Positions 7,958-38,037 of a stretch of DNA of 64,000 nucleotides are shown here, piece after piece (within the stretch, counting starts at the first letter, position 1; each line of letters begins with the position of its first letter). The position numbers and the translations under genes are program-made. Under the pieces are notes generated by a model. The model ran no database searches. It saw only the letters and a list, made by a program, of their open reading frames with translations, and had not been told where the DNA came from. This DNA comes from an uncultured Mycoplasmatales bacterium (lineage in GTDB: Bacteria; Bacillota_I; Bacilli_A; Mycoplasmatales; CGIF01): contig CAXUEP010000001.1 in the NCBI GenBank assembly GCA_964250295.1, forward strand, positions 60,989-124,988, given 5' to 3'.

Positions 7958-9814
<1,857 letters not shown>

Positions 9815-9858: not shown

Positions 9859-11004
9859 ATGAAAGACTACTATGAAATTCTAGGCGTTGCTAAAAATGCT
9901 TCGGCTGAGGATATTAAAAAAAAATATCGTTCTCTTGCCCTAAAAATGCATCCTGACAGACTTGTCAAAAAATCTGATCTTGAAAAAAAAGAAATTGAAA
10001 AGAGATTCCAGGAAATAACTAATGCTTACGAAACTCTCTCTAACGAGAAGACACGTAGGCAGTATGATAATGAGAGCAGGGGTGGATTCACCAGTGGCTT
10101 TGGAGGGGGTTTTGAAGGCTTTTCTAGTGCAGGTGATGAATCCTCGGTTTTTCAGGAAATCTTTGAAAATTTTTTTCAAAGTGGTAGGAGAGCTAGTTCA
10201 ACTACAAGAGCGAATACACCGCGCAGAGGCGAGGATATTCTAATATCTGTTGTGTTGCCGTTCAGAAAAGCTGTTAATGGTACAGAAATTACTAGGGAAA
10301 TAGATTTCCTGTATGCATGTCCTGCTTGTAAACAAACTGGTGCTTATTCAAAGGATCATATTAAAACATGCTCTACTTGTAATGGTAGTGGATCTGTGGA
10401 GAATATTCAACGTAGTTTCTATGGTAGTATTCGTACATCAACTGTTTGTAGTACTTGTAAGGGTAGTGGGAAGATTATCAGCAAAAAGTGTGACCTATGT
10501 CGTGGTAAAAACTTCGTTACAAGATCGCGTACTGTGGACATCAAGATTCCACGTGGTCTCCAGGTTGGCCAACGTTTAAGAATACCATCAGGAGGAAACG
10601 ATGGTCTTTATAGCAGTGAAAAGGGAGATATCTTTATAGAGTTTGAAATTGAAGAGAATAGTTACTTCAAAAAGAAAAATAATGACATACATGTCCAGTT
10701 ACCAATCTCCTTTCTTGATGCTATCGTGGGGAACACGGTCAAGGTTGTGACGATTGAGGGAGTTGAGGAATTGAAAGTTCCCCGCGGATCGCAGTTTGGT
10801 GATTGCGTAGTTCTTAGAAACAAGGGCTTCTACACAGGTGTTAGTAGGGAGAACAGGGGTGATTTCTATGTATGGCTGAAAATTATGCTGCCTAGGAAAA
10901 TTAGTAGTGAGAGTGAGAACACTCTCCGTGACCTCCAGGAGAAATCCCCTTGAAAGCCAAACAGTGATTTTCTGGAAGAAAACCATGCTAAACTTTTGAA
11001 GTAA
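9859..11004 (+). CDS. dnaJ: Chaperone DnaJ
   Basis: J domain with HPD, G/F region, CxxCxGxG-type repeats; reads through TGA 10951. Confidence 0.95.
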
Positions 11005-25026: not shown

Positions 25027-28000
25027 ATGAATAGTCACAAAAATTTGACTTACATTAATGTTCAAACTAATTGCAATCTTTCTTTTTCATTGTTTACAAT
25101 TGATGAGCTTGTAGCTTATTCAGTTACTAATGGAGTTGGGAGCCTTGCACTCTGCGAGAGCAACCCCTATGAGTTTTTGAAGTTTTACTACTTGTGTAAG
25201 AATTCTGGCATAAAACCAGTCTGGGGATTTAAGAAAGTTGTGAACTATAATAATCAACAACTAATTGTCAACTTTTTCCCCCGTAAATATTCAGAGTACA
25301 GGGAACTAAACAAGTTTTTTTATGAACAGGAGGAGAATGGAACTATTAGTTCATCCTCACTAGAAAAAATGGTTTCTAAGTGCCTACTTGTTCTAGAAGT
25401 TCGTAGTTATGAAGAAATTTCTCTAGCTACTAGACTTGAATCGGAAGTCTTACAGCATCCCGGTGGAAAAAGTTCGCAGGATATTTACTTTGGGTTAAAC
25501 TTCTTTCCAGGTAGAATTGAAGATGTGGTGGTAAATAGTGTTCGGGCAAACACACTTCCCTTCTTCTCAGTTAAAAGCTTCAACTGGGATGATCATAACC
25601 TACTGAATCAGTTAGGAATGACTAACTTTGTAAGTGGATTTACTAATGCATTCTTCGAATCAGTACCCTATCTAAGTAGAGCTGAACTGTCAGATCATTT
25701 TACCTCCTGCCTCGGTGAAAGTCCCATGAGAAGGAGTTCTGCCCAGTTTTTTAATCACTTATTTATTAATCTCGAAAACTTCTTGTCAAAAATTAGCCTG
25801 CTTATAAAGAAAGGTTCATTCACTGAAAAGGAAGAGGCATTTAGACTACTTAAGCAACAATGTGAAGAGAAACTAGACCGCTTAATTAGCAGTAAAAAAA
25901 AACTCTCTTACTCCAGAACTCTTGGTGAAGAATTAGCAATAATTAAGAAGAGAAACTATGCAAACTACTTCCTTGAACTTGCAAAAATAGTAGCAATTTT
26001 CTCAAAGAATGGTATTGAAACTGGACCAGGAAGGGGGAGTGCAACTTCCTCTCTTGTTTCATACTTACTAGGTCTCACGTTGATTGATCCTGTTCAGAAT
26101 CAACTATTCTTCTGGAGGTTTTTAAATGAAAAGAGAACTGACTTTCCTGATGTTGATATTGATGTAGGAAACCAGGAAGCTGCTCTGCGTTTAATTGAAA
26201 AAGAATATGGCCGTCAATCTATTGCAAAACTTATTGTGAAGAAGAGGATTGGGTGGTACGCAGCTGTTGTTGCAAGTTTGAAAACTTTTGGTGTTGAAGA
26301 GGAAGATTTTGTTTTTATTGAGGAAAATATTTCAAGATTCCTGAATACCCAGGAAAATGGAGCTTCTTCGCTAAAGACTAGGTATTTCTCTGATAAATAT
26401 CATAAGGCGTTTACACTCGCTAGACGTATTTATCTTCTTTATAGTGGAATAGCACCCCATCCTTCAGCGATTGTAATTTCAAACACAAAACTTAGTGAAA
26501 AGCTCCCAGTAAGGGATAGGGGAGAGTTTCCACTCTGTCTCTATCAACAAAAATATATTACGGAACTTGGTTTTAAGAAATTTGACTTTCTTAGCCTCAC
26601 AGAGAGTCTTTCATTTGTTAAGTACATAAAAGAAGAGAATCCGTCAGGAGTACCAACTTACACAGAACTTGCTATGGATGACAGTAAAACATGAAGTCTT
26701 CTTAAGAACTGTCTACTGGTAGGTGTGTTTCAGGTAAACACAAAATCATTTAATGAAATGATTAGTATACTTCAGCCTACGAACTTCACCGAACTTCTGC
26801 TTATAATTTCACTCAATAGGCCAGGTGCTAGTATTCTGCCCAGGGAAGTTTTGCAAATTTACCCCCTTAGTGAAGCAGGAAGGGGGAGACAATTTGAGTC
26901 TAGGAATATAAATGAAATACTTTCCCCAACTTATGGGCGAATTGTCTTTGAAGAGCAGGTTAGTCAGCTTTTATCATACTGCCTTAGCATTGATTTTGCG
27001 GAGGCTGAACTTCTTCGTAAGAATCTGAAAACAATTATCAATGATGATAGCCGCCGGAGGAGGTTTAAGCTTGAGTTTATTCTGAAAACAACTAGGAAGT
27101 TGAAATCCTTTGAAAAGGATATTCTCTGGAAAAAAATTGTTAAGAGTATTCCCTACCTATTCAACAAAGCTCATGCTACTTCTTACACATACCTAACTTA
27201 TTACACTGCATATCTTAAGGCAAATTTTTTTACTGATGCTCTTAGCTACTTTTTGTGTAGAAATGTTGGTAACTACAAGTCAACTATCCTTCTTTCTGAG
27301 GAAGCAGTTCTGATGGGATATAAGCTGGAAACTCCCGATGTTAATATTTCATTCTGGGAGTGGAAAATTGACACTAGGAGGGGGAAAGTCCTAGTAATGG
27401 GGTTTTTCCAGTTGGGAAGAAATTTCCACTCTTTCTTCCAGAGGGTTATTGAAGAACGTTCTAAAAATGGTGTCTTTAAAGACTGAAAAGATCTGCTTAC
27501 TAGACTTTCACAGCATTTCAACAGCCTGGGTACAGAAGACTTAGCTGTATGGATCAGGCTTGGTTTGTTTAGAAGTCTTCCTGCTAGTCAGCAGTGAACA
27601 ATTCTCCACCTTCCTTCACTTAAACGCTATGCAAGAATAGTAAGTTCACTAGGGACCTCCCCCAATGAGTATTTACCCTTCTTGTTAGCACCAGGGAATG
27701 TTTCTACTGAACATTCACTACTCTGGGAGAATCAAAAACAATGGGAGAGTTTCCACTTCTATCCTTCATATCTAGCTCGCTGAAAAGCCTCCTCTTCTAG
27801 TAGTCTCCACTATATCAGGGAGCAACTGTTTATTCTGGACAATGATTATCAGCAGTCTGACTGCTCTGAAGAAAGAAAAGTGGAAATACATGCTATTTTG
27901 GTAAGTGTTAAGAAGAATAATGATCAGTACCTACTGACACTGCTTCTCTTCAGTTCTGCCCTTGAGGTATTTTGCAATTCTGACTTCTATGAAAAAAACT

Positions 28001-28119
28001 CCAGCTTACTAGAGGTTCATAATGAAGCTATCTTCACACTCGAAAGTAAAAAGGAGAAATTCAAGAGTAAGTTGTTTGTAAGTGATGTTTCAACTCTCAG
28101 TGGTCAGCGAGGAATGTAA
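25027..28119 (+). CDS. dnaE: DNA polymerase III alpha subunit (DnaE type)
   Basis: GPGRGSA, PDVDID, KFDFLSL, FNKAHA; joined through several TGA. Confidence 0.88.
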
Positions 28120-28939: not shown

Positions 28940-29410
28940 GTGCTATCTTCAGTGTTAAACATAATTAATGAACATAACTATAAGTTGTCTAGTTTTAGGA
29001 ATGACTCTAAAAAAATTTTCACCCTGACTTTAGAGAAGATTAACCAGTACCAGAAGTCATTGTCCGTAGTGTTCTGTGATGAAAAAAAGATTACTATTCT
29101 TAATAAAAAACACCGGCAGCTGAAAAAGAAGAGTGATGTTCTTTCCTTCCCCTCTGACACTAAACTTACTCCTAACTACCTTGGCGATATTGTGATCTGC
29201 TATCCTGTTGCAGTTGCACAGGCGATTGAGTATGAACACTCCCTAAGAAGGGAGTTATCCTTCCTTTTTCTACATGGGCTACTTCATCTTCTAGGCTACG
29301 ATCATATAAAACTAGAGGATGAGATGCTAATGTTTGCATTGCAAGAAGAAATTCTTAACACTCTAGGAATAACGAGGGGAAGTTGCTGCTTAGTTCAGAA
29401 TAAGGGTTAG
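28940..29410 (+). CDS. ybeY: rRNA maturation endoribonuclease YbeY
   Basis: DVLSFP, LGDIVIC, HGLLHLLGYDH. Confidence 0.95.
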   Translation: MLSSVLNIINEHNYKLSSFRNDSKKIFTLTLEKINQYQKSLSVVFCDEKKITILNKKHRQLKKKSDVLSFPSDTKLTPNYLGDIVICYPVAVAQAIEYEHSLRRELSFLFLHGLLHLLGYDHIKLEDEMLMFALQEEILNTLGITRGSCCLVQNKG

Positions 29411-29419
29411 GTATCAGGA

Positions 29420-31693
29420 ATGTTTCATTACTTCTGGGAGAAATTTATAATCTGAAAATACTCATCACTGGTACGGAAAATAGTAAGAAATGGAAAGCAA
29501 ATTACTTACCTAACTGATGACGAGCTGCGGAAACGGGTTAACGACAGTAGGTCGCAACTAAGCAACCTAGAAAGGGGGAGGGTACTAAAATCAGTCCCCG
29601 ATTCTGTACTTGTTGAGGTCTATGCAATCACGAAAGAGGTAATTTTGAGAAAAATTGGTTTAAATCTCTTTCCAACCCAGCTGTTCGGAGCAATAGTTCT
29701 CCACCACGGAAACATCGCCCAGATGAACACTGGTGAGGGTAAAACATTGACTGCTATTCTTCCTGCTTGTCTAAATGCTCTTATGAAAAACACTGTCTAT
29801 GTTGCAACTGTTAATGAGTACCTTGCTAACAGGGATTGACAAATTTCAAAACCAGTTTTTGACTTTTTTTCCATACCCTCTGCTGTCAGGTTAGCTAGCT
29901 TTGATAAAGAACAGAAAAAGAAGGTTCATGAACACCACCAGATTATTTATACGACAGGCAGTCAACTTGGCTTTGATTACCTAAATAATAATCTAATTAG
30001 GAAAAAGTCTGAAAAAGTCTCGCTACGGCTTGACTATGTTATAATTGATGAAGTTGATTCTATTCTGATTGATGAGTCAAGAAATCCACTCATAATATCA
30101 CGTAGTAAGAAGGAAGATTTAGCTGATAACAACCAGGTAGAGAAATATCAGCAAGCATTCAAACTTGCAAAGAGTCTTGAGCGGGGGAATGATTATGTTG
30201 TTGAGAAGAAAGAAGAACTAGTTCATCTTACAGAAAGGGGGATTGCTAAAGCTGAAGAATTCTACGCTATTAGAAATCTTTTTGCTTTTACAAATCACCT
30301 GCAAAATTTTCTTCTTCTCAGTTCCCTAAAGGCTATAGAGTTATATAACAAGGGTGTTGAATACATTGTTGATAATGAGAAAAAGAAAATTGTTATAATT
30401 GATAGTTTTACAGGAAGGCTGGTTCCGAACAGGGTCTACGGATCAGGAATTCACCAGGCTATTGAAGTTAAGGAAAAACTTCCCCTTACTCCCCGTGGAA
30501 AATCAGTTGCGACTATAACATACCAAAACTTCTTCCGATTGTTCAAAAAAATTGCAGGAATGACTGGTACGGCAAAGAGTGAGAATGATGAGTTCAGACA
30601 AGTTTACGGAATGGAAGTAATTGTTGTTAAACCATACAAGCCACTTATTAGAAAGGATAATAGCGATTTAATTTTCTTTAATAAGAGAAGTAAATACGAA
30701 GCTGTTATTAAAACGATCAGGGAAAATTACCATGGAAAAAAACGACCTGTTCTGGTTGGTTCTTCCAGTCTTGAAACATCACAGTACCTTTCAAAATTGC
30801 TTAAACTCCTAAGGATTGAACATTCTCGTCTTAATGCTGTAAACCATCGTGAAGAAGCTGCAGTTATCAAAAGAGCAGGTGAAATAGGACAACTAACAAT
30901 TTCAACAAACATGGCAGGTCGGGGTACTGATATCGTACTTACACAAGAGAGTATTAATAGGGGAGGTCTCCTGCTAATTGGTCTTGAAAGAAATTTCAGT
31001 AGGAGAATAGATGACCAGTTAAAAGGAAGAGCAGGGAGGCAGGGGAATCCCGGAACTACACAATTTTATATCTCCCTTGAGGATGATCTGCTGAAGAACT
31101 ACGCCCTTCACGAAAAGATTGAGGGGCTTCTAGGTAGTAAACAATTAAATGAACTTGCAAAAAACTACCTTAGTCATAAGATGTTTGACATACTGGTTTC
31201 TGAACCACAAGAAACTATTAAGAATTTCAACTCAAGTATTCGTAAGTACACTCTTGGCTATGACATTGTAATTAATAAACAGCGGAAACTTACCTACGAC
31301 TACCGTGCGTTAGTAGTTGATTCGGAGGATCTACCAAAGTTGTTCCTTGATAAGAGTACTGAAACTAGTAACTTGGCTAAGGAATTAGAATTATTTTCCC
31401 TACTTCATGAAAAACTTAAAAGGGAAGCTCTCAGTAGAATTGACAACTTCTGGGCAGACTACCTAGAGTGTCTTGAAAAACTGCGTAGTGTAATAAGCTT
31501 TCGGGTTTATTCTCTTCAAGATCCACAGGATGCCTACTTCCTTGAGAGTAACCGCTTATTCTATAAGAATTACTCAAATACACAAGAAGAAAATAAGAAG
31601 GCAACTGAAAGATTTGTCAAATACTTCTCATCTTTCCATAAGTTGTTTGGGAAAACACAGGAAAAAATTTCTCTGGATTCTAAGGTTTTCTAA
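29420..31693 (+). CDS. secA: Preprotein translocase SecA (compact, about 757 aa)
   Basis: [41 protein letters not shown]. Confidence 0.95.
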
Positions 31694-31836: not shown

Positions 31837-34800
31837 ATGGAACAGATTAATAGAAGAGATAGCTCACTAGATAAAGACTGTTTACAGAAGAATGATGATC
31901 CTTCATTGTTCTTAACTAATAATGTTCTAGTTAGTAAACTTCCAACTGGCAGAAATCTTCACCCTTCCTTACTTGCAAGTGAATGAAAAAAGAAGAACCT
32001 GCAGCTCTGCGAGTTTAGCTTACGTAGTAAGTTTAGTACCCTTGATGGAATTGATAACCCCTCTAAATATGTTGAGAGTGCTGAGAAGAAGAATTACAAA
32101 GCCCTACTTATTAATGAGCATAACAATGTACAATCATTCCCTGAGTTCTGAGAGGCAGGTTCACACAGTGAAAAAGTAAGAATTCTCTATGGGTGTGAAT
32201 TTGAAATGGTTAACCAGGGGGGTCTTAACTTTCTTATCTGTTCTGCCGAACAGCAGAAAAACTCCCAACTCTGGGGCAAACCAGTCAGTGAGATGAGGTA
32301 CTGTATTTTTGACTTGGAAACAACTGGTCTCTATCCTGCATATGATGAAATTATTGACTTCGCCTATGTTATTGTTCAGAATGAAAAGATTATAGCAGAA
32401 GGAAGCTACCTGGTTAAAACAAGCATCAAAATTAGTGACTCTGTAAAAAAACTAACAGGAATTAAAGAGAACGATCTTGAAAAAGCCTCCTCACTTGAAG
32501 AAGTTCTTAGTGAAGTTAGGGACCAGTGGGAGAGGAATAATGTTGAATTATTGGTTTCACATAATTTAAAGAACTTTGACTTTCCCTTTTTAAATAAAGC
32601 CTGGCAGCGAGTTTTCTCTGAAAAAATTAGGTATCTAGGGATTGACACCCTCCCCCTAGCGCGAGTTTTCATACCAGGAAAGAAGTCTTATAGTTTAGAA
32701 AAACTAAGCTCACAGGGAAGGGACAAAATCGAGCAAGTGCACCGTGCTTTTGAAGATACATTACTCTTGAAAACCCTTTTTGAACGGATCACAAAGTTGC
32801 TAAAAGAACAGAAGCTGTCAACTTGAAGAGAAGCCTCCCTAGTTAGTCCCGAAAAATACTACTATCGTGGAGCTACAACGCGAGTAATTGCTATAGCAAA
32901 GAACAACCAGGGTCTGGCAGAACTATATAGACTTGTCAAGATTGCACATGTTGATAATTTCTTTAAGGTACCCCTCCTGTTCAAGGCCGATATTGAAGAA
33001 CACCGGGAGAATATCCTGGTTGGTGCATCAGGTGGTCCAGATGAGGAAGTGTTTTCCCTGTTTAGTGGCTTCGAAGAGGAAGAGGAGGTTAGCAGAAGGA
33101 TTAAGTTTTATGACTATGTTGAAGTACGTCCTCCTGACTGTTTTAGGCACTTTTTAAAATCTGAAAGGATTAGTCAGAAGAACCTCGAGAACCTACTTTC
33201 CTCGCTAATAGCAAAAGTACAACAGCTACACACAAGAGTTATAGCAGTCAATAATGTTCACTATTGTGATAGAGAGGGAGCAAAAATAAAGGAGATTATT
33301 GTTGCTAATGATGGAATGAATGGTAGCCGTCATCCCCTCTATAACTTTGCTGTTTCAGAGTTATTTGGTGATTGCTTTGAACTACTTCCTGCTCAACACT
33401 TAAGAACAATGGAAGAAGTTGCCGAGAACTGGAAATTTCTTCAAAACATAGAAGTTATCGAAGATATAGTTTTTCATAACCAGGATGAACTTCTGAACCT
33501 TGTTAGTGAGGTAAGAATTCGTAGTGAACATGTTGGTTATCCTAGTTCCAGCAAGAATGAAGAGGAGATAATGAGTTTTTGCCTAGCAAAGGCTAACCAG
33601 ATATTCGACGATAAAATCCCTTTTTTTGTAAGTGAACGTATCCAACATGAATGGAAAGTTATCAAAAAGAACTACCTAGCTGTGTACTGGATTTCCTGGA
33701 AAATTGTTGCAAAGGCGCAACAGAAGGGGAACATTGTTGGCTCCCGTGGTTCGGTTGGTTGTTCATTGATAGCATACTTGCTAAACATTACAGACATCAA
33801 CCCCCTTCCCCTCTACAGTATATGTACCTACTGTAAGAACGTTAAAGTTGTTGCGAAGAATGAACAGGATAGTGAACTTTCTTGTTATGACTTCTCTACT
33901 AAACAACTTTGTTCAGAATGTGAAAAAGGTAATTTAAAGTTTGAAGGTCATTCACTACCCTTCGAAACCTTTGTTGGCTGAAATGGTGAAAAAACACCGG
34001 ATATTGATCTTAATTTTTCTGGTGAATACCAGCGAACTGCTCATAACTACATAAGACAGCTGCTAGGAGCAGAGAGTGTTTATAGAATTGGTACAATTAA
34101 CAAGCTGTCCCAGCAGACAGCAGAAATCTTCTGGGATGAACACCAGAAGCTTAGAAAAGCACTAACTCGTGACTTTAGTACTCGTGCTTGGATTTCCCCT
34201 CTTTCAAACCAGGATGGTAGTTTTGAAGAATTTTCTACAACTAAGGAGCATGCGATAAATTTTCTAAAGGGAATTAAACGAACTACTGGTCAGCACCCTG
34301 GTGGTCTTCTCGTTGTACCTCCGGGAATAGATATTCTTGACTTTACTGCCCTCAACTACCCTGCTGATGATACTAGTTCTGACTGGTTAACTACCCACTT
34401 TGAGTATAGTTTTCTCTCAAAAATATTTCTTAAATTAGATATTCTTGGTCATGATGAACCAACTATTCTACAGAAGCTGAGTAGCCTAACTGGCAAGAAC
34501 CCCCTTAGCGAAGAAGATGTTAGTTTTGATGACCAGAAGGTAATGGATATTTTCACCAACTGTGAAACATTGGGAATTCCTGAGTTCGGTACTGATCTTG
34601 TTAAGAAGAGTCTTCTTGAACCAATTAAACCAACAAAATTTTCCCAGCTTGTGCAGATTTCTGGTTTCTCACATGGTACCGATGTTTGGATGCAAAACCA
34701 ACAGCGTATTCATAAGGAAGGAAAGCTTTCCCTGGATAAACTACTTGCCTGCCGTGAGGATATCCTAAACCTCCTTGATAGAAAGGGAGTTGATAAGGAG

Positions 34801-35847
34801 AGTGCTTTCCATGCTACAGAATTTATCAGAAAAGGTAAGTGGGAAAAACTCACCGCCAGTGTAAAAAGTCTGATTAAGAGTAGGCTGAATGATAAGGAAG
34901 GAGAAATCTACTTCTCAATCCTAGAAAGGATTAAATATATTTTTCCTAAACCGCATGCGATTGCATACACAATGACTGCATGAAGAACTGCCTACTACAA
35001 GGTCTACTACCCAGAGGCATTCTACTCTGTGCTGCTTACTTACCATGCAACTGTCTATGACTTGTGGTTGATGACCTTCGATACAGAAAGGAGTATTCCC
35101 TTCCGGCTTGGAAAGTTACTCAGTAACCTGGACACTCTTAAGGTAAATAGGAAGGAGTTTATTTCCATTTCCAAAGTTCTAATTAAGCTTGCAAGGGAAG
35201 ATGAAAAGGTTAGAGAATTTACCGAAGTAATTTTCTCTCCTGAAAAAAACTACTATGAATTGTTTGGGTTGGATGAAGATTTCCTACCTGAACAGTTAAA
35301 CAATTCTTTTGACTTAGTAGTTGCATCCCTACAACGAAAAAGTGGAGTAGGTGGACAGAACGGTAGGGTGGGTTTGCGTCTCCGCGAAAAAGTTTTAAAA
35401 GAAACTGAATACCTGAAAACTGCTCGTGATACGCTTCTTAGCGGAGATAGGAGAAAACTCTATGATAGGAAGTTAGAGATTCAGAAGAAAGTGAGAAAGA
35501 ACTTTTCCCCTCGTGACTTCAGTGACTGGAAGTCAACAATGAAGGAAAAAAACCTTCTCTTTACCCTAAAAGTGATTGCTGAAATTCGTCAGAAGGGTTT
35601 TAATTACACAGTTGGTGTTGACTTCAACAACTCAGAAACCCATAACTTCAAATTTGTAGATGGTAAAATGCTGATTCCCTTCCTAGCAATAACCGGTATT
35701 GGTGAAGCACTTGCAAACAAGCTTATTGCCTACCGTGAAAACTACTGTAGAATTAACTACTGGAAAGATGATTTAAAAGGAATTCTTAATAAGAAACACT
35801 TTGAACAGTTTCTGGATCTTGAAGAGAATAATCTTCTCTTTAACTAA
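31837..35847 (+). CDS. polC: DNA polymerase III PolC (N-terminally short; J-domain-like insertion)
   Basis: PHP domain with embedded DEDDh exonuclease (FDLETTG, HRAFED), RGSVG, PDIDLNFSGEYQ, TTGQHPGG, KLDILGHD, FPKPHA; three TGA=Trp. Confidence 0.93.
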
Positions 35848-36660: not shown

Positions 36661-37533
36661 ATGATGACTAATAACAGTAAACAACAACAATCTCGTTCTC
36701 GTTCATTCCGCGAAGCAGTTGTTGTTTACTGAAAGCTAGTAAGATTCTACTTCTATAATTTATTAAGAAATGGCAATTATCTGTTGATTTCCCTCTACTT
36801 CGTGACCCCATTAGTTCCGCTACTCCTTGCTCCTTTCCTACTAACGCCTGGAGCACGCAAGGCATACCACGAAACAAAATCTAAAATTGAAAATATTCAA
36901 AATGAAGTTTCTTCAAGTACAAATTTATTAAGTCCTTTTGTGTTAAATGAGATACCAGAAAGAATAAGTAATGAGGTACCAGCTAGGTTACAATGGTTAG
37001 TTCTTGTGCGTAGTTTGATGGAAGATGAAGCGCTTCCCTGGGCGTTGCATATTTTCTTCTTTTTTAATATTGGATCAGCAGTAGTACAAAATTTATACTT
37101 GCTGGGAAGAAGAAATGTTAATAATGCAACTCCGCAGGAGGAAGATATTATTTCTTCTGTTGAGAAGATAAGGCCTTACGACATATTCTTTTTTGAAGCT
37201 ACTTTCTTATTGCTAGTTCAGTTATTACACCTTGTTCTTGTAATTTCAACATGTTCTCTCTATAGAAGATTATCAGCAGAAAATCTCCGCTCACTCTCTA
37301 AATATGACCTTGTACTTTATATTCAGAAATTTTCTGTCTCTTGAATTTCAAGTATAATTTGTGGGATTTTGATTTCCTTTAAAACACTTTCTATCAAGAG
37401 ATTTCTTAAAGAATCTCTTAAACTTAGTACTAGTGACCGGCAGGTTGAAATATTTAGTAGAGTTATGTTAACTTTCGCCGGCTTACAGGGTTGTTATTTT
37501 AACTATAGGAAGACAAAGGCACTTCGTAGCTAA
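36661..37533 (+). CDS. Membrane protein, probable ABC permease partner
   Basis: Code-4 ORF directly after the ATPase; several hydrophobic segments. Confidence 0.55.
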
Positions 37534-37623: not shown

Positions 37624-38037
37624 ATGATGAATATTTATAAAAAGATTTTTGCAATCCAAAGTGAGATTGGAAATTTGGTTAAGGATGAGTTGAATAAGTT
37701 TCAGAGGTACCAATACTTTAATGAATACCAGGTTCTAACCAAGTTAAAACCACTCCTTGAAAAGTATGGACTCACATTACTGATGAGTGATGAAAACCAT
37801 GTTCTAGAGTACTCTAGAGAGGAAAAGGAATATCTTGTTAAATATCTAAAAAAGATAAGAATAGTAAATACAGAAACTACTAATGAAGAAAGTATTGATT
37901 TTAACTTCTGGGCAGTTGGTGGAAACACTGACTTGGCAAAAGCGAAGGGTAGTGCAGAAACCTATGCTGTTAAATATTTCCTAAGTAAGTTCTTTCTCAT
38001 TCCAGTGGCTGATCAGCTTGACCCTGATAGATTCTAA
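37624..38037 (+). CDS. ERF-family single-strand annealing protein
   Basis: KDELNKFQRYQY..LKPLLEKYGL and KAKGSAETYAVKYFLSKFFLIP..DPD (ERF signature). Confidence 0.85.
   Translation: MMNIYKKIFAIQSEIGNLVKDELNKFQRYQYFNEYQVLTKLKPLLEKYGLTLLMSDENHVLEYSREEKEYLVKYLKKIRIVNTETTNEESIDFNFWAVGGNTDLAKAKGSAETYAVKYFLSKFFLIPVADQLDPDRF

Follow-up and report, generated by a model that had tools for sequence, protein, structure and literature searches.

Few enzymes are as conserved as the replicative polymerases, and J domains usually serve solely as switches of Hsp70. A J domain in cis with a DNA replication protein is known from the polyomavirus large T antigen, where it lies at the N-terminus, has kept its HPD tripeptide and works with Hsc70. 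That protein is viral/eukaryotic, and its J domain is fused to a helicase, not to a polymerase.

The HPD tripeptide is essential for the stimulation of Hsp70, with HPE as the only variant known to be tolerated, and J-domain proteins without HPD, called "type IV", are presumed to be non-functional towards Hsp70 (review PMC13254874). Pam16/Tim16 and DNAJB13 are examples of type IV or J-like domains in which the four-helix J fold is kept and HPD is lost, and such HPD-less domains often serve as structural or regulatory parts (PMC13254874).

The module described here resembles large T antigen in being in cis with a DNA replication protein, and it belongs with the J-like/type IV domains by its J fold, its J-family homology and the absence of HPD. 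While the type IV and J-like systems are separate proteins or terminal domains, this module is inserted in frame into the interior of a replicative polymerase of bacteria, PolC. J-like domains are already known; a J domain inside a replicative polymerase is new in the literature searched, in which we found no description of a PolC-J fusion, and the earlier note on this DNA had likewise known of none. The genome paper on the relatives introduced below mentions neither polC nor DnaJ (PMC10507103).

The window, that is, the whole stretch of DNA that was analysed, is 64,000 nucleotides long and comes from a genome of 225 kb in 2 contigs (65% complete, ca 37% GC). Along its length the GC content is ca 33–41%. 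The relatives of the lineage are Mollicutes-related endobacteria (MRE) of Mucoromycota fungi. The window's genome is in the same genus as four others, called G001 to G004, of which G001 (615,212 bp) is the MRE of Benniella sp. AD185 and G003 (326,911 bp) is that of Linnemannia elongata AD073 (PMC10507103). G001 and G002 are the two Benniella-type genomes (MRE-B). Two further sequences carry the insert: P0005, a JGI metagenome fragment nearly identical to G003, and P0006, a 1307-aa PolC found in a Logan assembly, where secA and polC are ordered as they are in the window. The genes around polC are as follows.

25027–28119, + strand: dnaE, DnaE-type Pol III alpha, 1030 aa, on the strand of polC and 3.7 kb upstream of it
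28940–29410: ybeY, between dnaE and polC
29420–31693: secA, between dnaE and polC, ending 143 bp upstream of polC
31837–35847, + strand: polC, PolC-type DNA polymerase III alpha, an open reading frame of 1336 aa under code 4, with TGA read as W at 5 codons
35930–36658: ABC ATPase gene, downstream of polC
36661–37533: unassigned open reading frame of 290 aa, after the ABC ATPase gene
37624–38037, + strand: stand-alone ERF-family annealase, 137 aa, downstream of polC past the two preceding genes

As both dnaE and polC are found, two replicative polymerases are kept in this tiny genome. The best solved relative of the window PolC is PolC 9qpc (phmmer against the PDB, E 2.4e-170), and Pfam recognises PHP, the RNase_T exonuclease, DNA_pol3_alpha, the finger domain and a weak HHH_6. 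The protein shares with canonical PolC (G. kaustophilus 3F2B; 9qpc) the order PHP-Exo-palm-fingers-HhH and the catalytic motifs of the polymerase and the exonuclease, which are found in the translation as PDIDLNF and LDILGHD for the former and as FDLETTG and HRAFED for the latter. It differs from canonical PolC, however, in having ca 130 extra residues between the fingers and HhH, in the missing N-terminal/OB region, in a degenerate PHP HxH motif, which here is SLR, and in the lack of a recognisable C-terminal clamp-binding tail. The match to 9qpc begins at query residue 58 and chain residue 363; the window PolC starts only ca 57 residues ahead of PHP (31837–32010), and is thus without the N-terminal domain or OB fold. 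The earlier statement that all catalytic motifs are intact holds for the polymerase and the exonuclease, but not for the PHP site, and the N-terminal and OB regions are missing. At the N-terminus, ca 200 extra PolC residues are retained in G003 and not in G004 or P0006.

In the HMMER alignment with 9qpc, query residues 58–1079 correspond to chain residues 363–1341, and the alignment resumes at query 1232 and chain 1361. This leaves ca 152 residues in the window PolC where 9qpc has ca 19, so the figure of about 160 residues against 30 in the earlier note is roughly right. The insertion, which is specific to the lineage and amounts to ca 130 residues, sits where the fingers domain meets the C-terminal duplex-binding (HhH) domain. 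The J-like peptide quoted previously could be placed exactly, at 35242–35469, and the insertion is laid out in the following way.

35104–35241, + strand: helical first part of the insertion, ca residues 1090–1135 (from the C-terminus alignment, hhalign and AlphaFold2)
35242–35469, + strand: J-like (pseudo-J) domain, residues 1136–1211, helices I–IV (from hhalign, the profile search and AlphaFold2)
35332–35340, + strand: QRK where HPD would stand, with a Gly-rich II–III loop after it (from the hhalign register and the translation)
35470–35523, + strand: basic linker helix after the J module, residues 1212–1229 (from the alignment and AlphaFold2)

Over its first ca 45 residues the insertion is a helical expansion that every MRE PolC shares, including those of the J-less Benniella MRE, and AlphaFold2 predicts three helices for this part with a pLDDT of 53–76. 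At the other end, the linker helix runs into the conserved KEKNLL helix of the duplex-binding/HhH domain.

The distribution of the insertion was examined by a protein search of 40 related genomes and a MAFFT alignment of 30 Mycoplasmatales PolC C-termini. All 24 complete outgroup PolCs, from Mycoplasmatales outside the genus, have a gap at the insertion site; a 25th outgroup PolC, L014, is truncated ahead of it. The full insert is present in three same-genus genomes, namely the window's own, G003 and G004, and the PolCs of G001 and G002 have only its first ca 40 residues. These comparisons, of a kind that the earlier note had proposed, indicate that the insertion is real and clade-specific. 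The same in-frame insert recurs in five independent assemblies, where its flanks are conserved and the secA-polC synteny is kept, which makes an assembly artefact unlikely. We found no scars of mobile elements or recombination in the flanks, where there are only chance-sized repeats of 10–11 nt, and no GC break at the insert. An intein was considered and rejected, since the insert gives no Hint or homing-endonuclease Pfam match at E≤10 and the module folds as a J domain.

It is important to point out that the window's own copy is the hardest to recognise. It has no PF00226 match at E≤10 in Pfam and no phmmer match among the PDB sequences, BLASTP against the DnaJ of the same genome aligns 22 residues only (E 0.024), and hhalign with the window insert as a single sequence gives a probability of 43%. 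The orthologous copies are better preserved. A six-frame PF00226 scan of the relatives has matches inside polC of G003 (27.3 bits) and G004 (13.2 bits), and with hmmscan on the excised inserts the scores are 27.4 bits for G003 (E 3.8e-6), 20.6 for P0006 and 12.7 for G004, the Pfam cut-off being 27.8 bits; in each of the three the match spans the whole model (1–63). The J ancestry of the window copy rests thus partly on its orthology with these inserts.

When an alignment of three insert sequences is compared by hhalign with 30 Mycoplasmatales J domains, the probability is 97.3% (E 1.6e-11, score 59.5), and the maximum score among 60 column shuffles is 15.2. In the most independent of the tests, the insert profile was searched against 1.84 billion representative proteins, which yielded 32 matches at a library-wide E≤1e-3. 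Three of these are PolC orthologues, i.e. the window's own fragment, P0005 and P0006, and each of the remaining 29 is a PF00226 protein above Pfam's gathering score. The 29 matches, with E down to 2e-8, fall within profile positions ca 27–149, centred on the J segment.

The predicted structure points in the same direction. AlphaFold2 on the insert alignment gives a mean pLDDT of 74; across the J part the means of ten-residue blocks are 60–91, lowest at the II–III loop and 87–91 over most of the helices, which lie at 53–57, 65–83, 94–115 and 117–136 and follow the J pattern. J domains dominate the top 50 of Foldseek, with individual E-values of 0.05–1 that are non-significant. In VIA-align, all 50 of the rows listed are J domains (Z 9.3–5.9), the best of them with Z 9.3–8 and an rmsd of 2.1–3 Å over 62–72 residues, for example 5nro_B with 2.1 Å over 62 residues. 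Among the entries of the fold-search list are J-fold subunits of large complexes, such as 9grx_U (chloroplast NDH) and 7tgh_J1 (ciliate complex I), as well as the J-fold subunits 6hiv_BK (trypanosome mitoribosome) and 7jtk_y (radial spoke).

Judged from the profiles and the model, a true J domain, though a degenerate one, makes up the core of the insertion. It is homologous to the canonical DnaJ/Hsp40 J domain (PF00226) in profile and fold and has the same core residues (K/R-x-Y-Y-E from helix I, plus the A and the Y-D of helices III and IV), whereas it has QRK for HPD, a neutral or acidic helix II, and a window sequence below PF00226 detection. The similarity that had earlier been seen by eye is borne out by the hhalign score relative to the shuffles (59.5 against at most 15.2) and by the 29 J proteins among the 29 matches that are not PolC, and the AlphaFold2 model has the J topology. 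For PF00226 itself the outcome is divided: the window copy has no match, and the orthologous inserts score 27.4, 20.6 and 12.7 bits against the cut-off of 27.8.

We now turn our attention to what the module has lost. In the hhalign register, QRK stands at the position of HPD and is followed by SGVGGQNGRVG, which agrees with the description of the module as HPD-less with a Gly-rich linker; this Gly-rich loop is peculiar to the window genome. The equivalent residues in the orthologues are KAT (G004), TEK (G003) and a deletion (P0006), and as the position differs among them, no substitute motif is evident. For helix II the net charge is 0 with the window copy, 0 to −3 with the orthologues and +3 with the DnaJ of the same genome. 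Both known determinants of Hsp70 activation, i.e. HPD and the basic face of helix II, are thus gone in every orthologue. Electrostatic DNA binding by the insert was rejected as a role, because the net charge of the whole insert ranges from −3 to +9 among the orthologues and is not consistently basic.

No segment of PolC evolves faster than the J part, whose rate is about twice that of the rest: it is 29–32% identical to those of G003 and G004, compared to 60–61% for the whole PolC and 73–75% for palm and fingers. Nine of the 76 positions of the module are invariant across the four lineages, a conservation estimate from four distinct lineages only, in which a conserved new surface could be missed. 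All nine belong to the most conserved core of the J family, namely K/R-x-Y-Y-E, two positions in helix II, the A of helix III and Y-D. That only residues of the J-fold core are invariant indicates that the fold is maintained, with no new conserved surface visible. The length of the module is nearly constant in the four lineages (1–3 gap columns), including the 327-kb genome, which suggests some constraint.

With HPD and the basic helix II lost, the sequence evolving fast and only the core invariant, the module most likely no longer stimulates DnaK. The earlier proposal of a captured J fold without HPD in an otherwise PolC-like enzyme is supported by these results. The accompanying idea of a chaperone contact is not, because both determinants are gone in every orthologue and no substitute motif is evident.

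To place the insertion in the history of the group, a maximum-likelihood tree was built from the PolC C-terminus with the insert removed. The MRE are monophyletic in this tree (support 100/100), and the J-bearing PolCs fall together in a single clade, (window,(P0006,(G004,G003))), with support 100/99, which is sister to the two Benniella MRE. The window genome branches earlier within the J clade and stands apart in composition; the Linnemannia MRE sharing the J insert are reported at 22.8–24.7% GC (PMC10507103). A J remnant was not found in the short MRE-B insert when it was compared by hhalign with J domains (0.5%), and against the full insert it aligns with 83% probability over the first 37 helical residues. 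A single gain in the J clade and a single loss in the Benniella MRE are equally parsimonious. The J module also provides a lineage marker within the MRE.

The window also contains two chaperone genes, dnaK and dnaJ.

7976–9814, + strand: dnaK (Hsp70), the normal partner of J domains (Pfam HSP70, E 1.7e-213)
9859–11004, + strand: canonical dnaJ with intact HPD, J domain at 9859–10068, from which the captured J may derive

Both the profile of the insert and the insert of G003 have their top or near-top scores against the J domains of the clade's own DnaJ, and the long helix II–III loop of the insert resembles the one in these proteins. Taken together, the scores and the common long loop are a weak hint that the module may have been copied from the lineage's own dnaJ. 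In the DnaJ proteins of the clade (9859–10068, L061 and L062) there are 14 residues from HPD to the KRFQEI helix, and ca 9 in most Mycoplasmatales.

The explanation that we consider probable is that a J domain was captured, later decayed, and has been kept as a folded pseudo-J appendage without Hsp70 activation. A J-coding piece, perhaps a copy of the 5′ end of the own dnaJ, would have been captured once in the ancestor of the window lineage, P0006, G004 and G003; the alternative history would have the module lost once in the Benniella MRE. After the capture, both of the Hsp70-activating determinants would have been lost, and the module would persist as a surface-exposed, type IV-like appendage of PolC, in which selection seems mainly to preserve the fold. 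It may offer a docking surface in a remodelled MRE replisome, or it may do no more than leave the polymerase undisturbed. A scaffold role, as had been suggested before, is compatible with the data, and a docking or spacer role is plausible. Genomes as small as 327 kb have kept the ca 130 residues, which speaks for some use, and we consider a selected structural or docking role to be slightly better than an even bet and a neutral passenger to be a smaller but real possibility.

The main competing explanation is that the module is a relic without a selected role, which we regard as possible although rather doubtful. Such a passenger would survive only since frameshifts and partial deletions in an essential gene are lethal and its helices are packed with the flanking MRE-specific helices. 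The rate of evolution of the segment, the fastest in PolC (29–32% identity compared to 60% overall), its hypervariable loop, the restriction of invariant residues to the fold core with no conserved surface, and the sister MRE-B PolCs that work without the module are all in line with this. However, four lineages have kept the length within 1–3 gap columns despite the deletion bias typical of endosymbionts, and AlphaFold2 still folds the module with block pLDDT values of 87–91 over most helices. Another option considered was a non-canonical chaperone tether, in which the pseudo-J would bind DnaK without stimulating it or would pair with a true J domain in the manner of Pam16-Pam18, with DnaJ or the small J proteins of G003 and G004 as candidate partners, so that Hsp70 would be held near a mutation-laden replicase. 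There are precedents for this, both in the Pam16-Pam18 pairing (PMC13254874) and in J proteins repurposed for mitochondrial DNA replication (PMC11349236); moreover, dnaK and dnaJ are retained in a very small genome, and further small J-domain open reading frames occur in G001–G004. The loss of both HPD and the basic helix II, the lack of conservation at the HPD position and the lack of a conserved surface outside the fold core make this explanation improbable to us.

A slightly less improbable idea, which we still hold to be unlikely, is that the module is a replisome adaptor that makes a new PolC contact, e.g. with DnaE, the helicase, SSB or a second PolC, and compensates for the undetected clamp and clamp loader. 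DnaN and DnaX are not found in the five same-genus genomes, three Pol III subunits are reported missing (PMC10507103), the MRE PolCs end ahead of the usual C-terminal QLxLF-type clamp motif, and the insert adjoins the duplex-binding domain. Yet the MRE-B genomes are also without detectable DnaN/DnaX and are J-less, which means that loss and gain are not coupled and that the module is not simply a compensation; the insert charge (−3 to +9, not consistently basic) and the missing conserved surface speak against the adaptor as well. The broader statement that the pseudo-J is a cis-acting tether, which would either keep DnaK/DnaJ on the replicase, directly or in a Pam16-like way, or couple PolC to another replisome part in a lineage whose clamp and clamp loader seem to be lost, has by our estimate a low probability too. 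If it were true, a minimal endosymbiont would have built a chaperone fold into the core of its replication machinery and given it a new use there. Finally, the segment could be unrelated to J domains and resemble them by chance, or not be part of polC but an assembly chimera. The window segment does fail PF00226, its BLASTP match to the own DnaJ spans 22 residues with E 0.024, and the Foldseek E-values are individually 0.05–1. This reading is nevertheless effectively refuted, and we give it hardly any probability: apart from PolC orthologues, the library-wide search matches J proteins alone, with E down to 2e-8, and the shuffle control is clean; five independent assemblies contain the insert in frame, its flanks conserved and the secA-polC synteny kept; and flanking repeats and a compositional break are absent.

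Under the preferred explanation of a captured and decayed J domain, the module illustrates that domain capture and decay take place even in genomes of ca 0.3 Mb. If it has a partner, it would be a pointer to how the MRE replicate with a stripped-down replisome. If it has none, it would be a clean natural example of a pseudo-domain that folding constraints alone preserve within an essential protein.

The replisome of the MRE is unusual in other respects as well, with the clamp and clamp loader undetected and PolC truncated in some members and split in others. The sliding clamp DnaN (PF00712, TIGR00663) was not found in the five same-genus genomes (the window's own and G001–G004), and neither was the clamp loader DnaX (TIGR02397), for which there are only P-loop-level matches; three Pol III subunits are given as missing in the MRE genome paper (PMC10507103). 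In five other genera DnaN escapes detection too, so that its apparent absence may reflect divergence and not loss. The MRE PolCs (in the window at 35800–35847) stop short of the QLxLF-type clamp-binding tail carried by other Mycoplasmatales PolCs.

In both Benniella-type MRE genomes, polC is split into two genes.

G001: L005:850–3789(+) and L032:1875–3449(−), ca 10 kb apart
G002: L004:1390–4362(−) and L031:2019–3872(−), ca 220 kb apart

The N part has ca 980–990 codons from stop to stop, ends at ca query residue 790, and has a heptad-like, charged tail (…LEAELKKMESQKE). The C part has 525–618 codons and a similar charged helix at its start. The split polC may be a natural split replicase whose two halves would be joined by a coiled coil.
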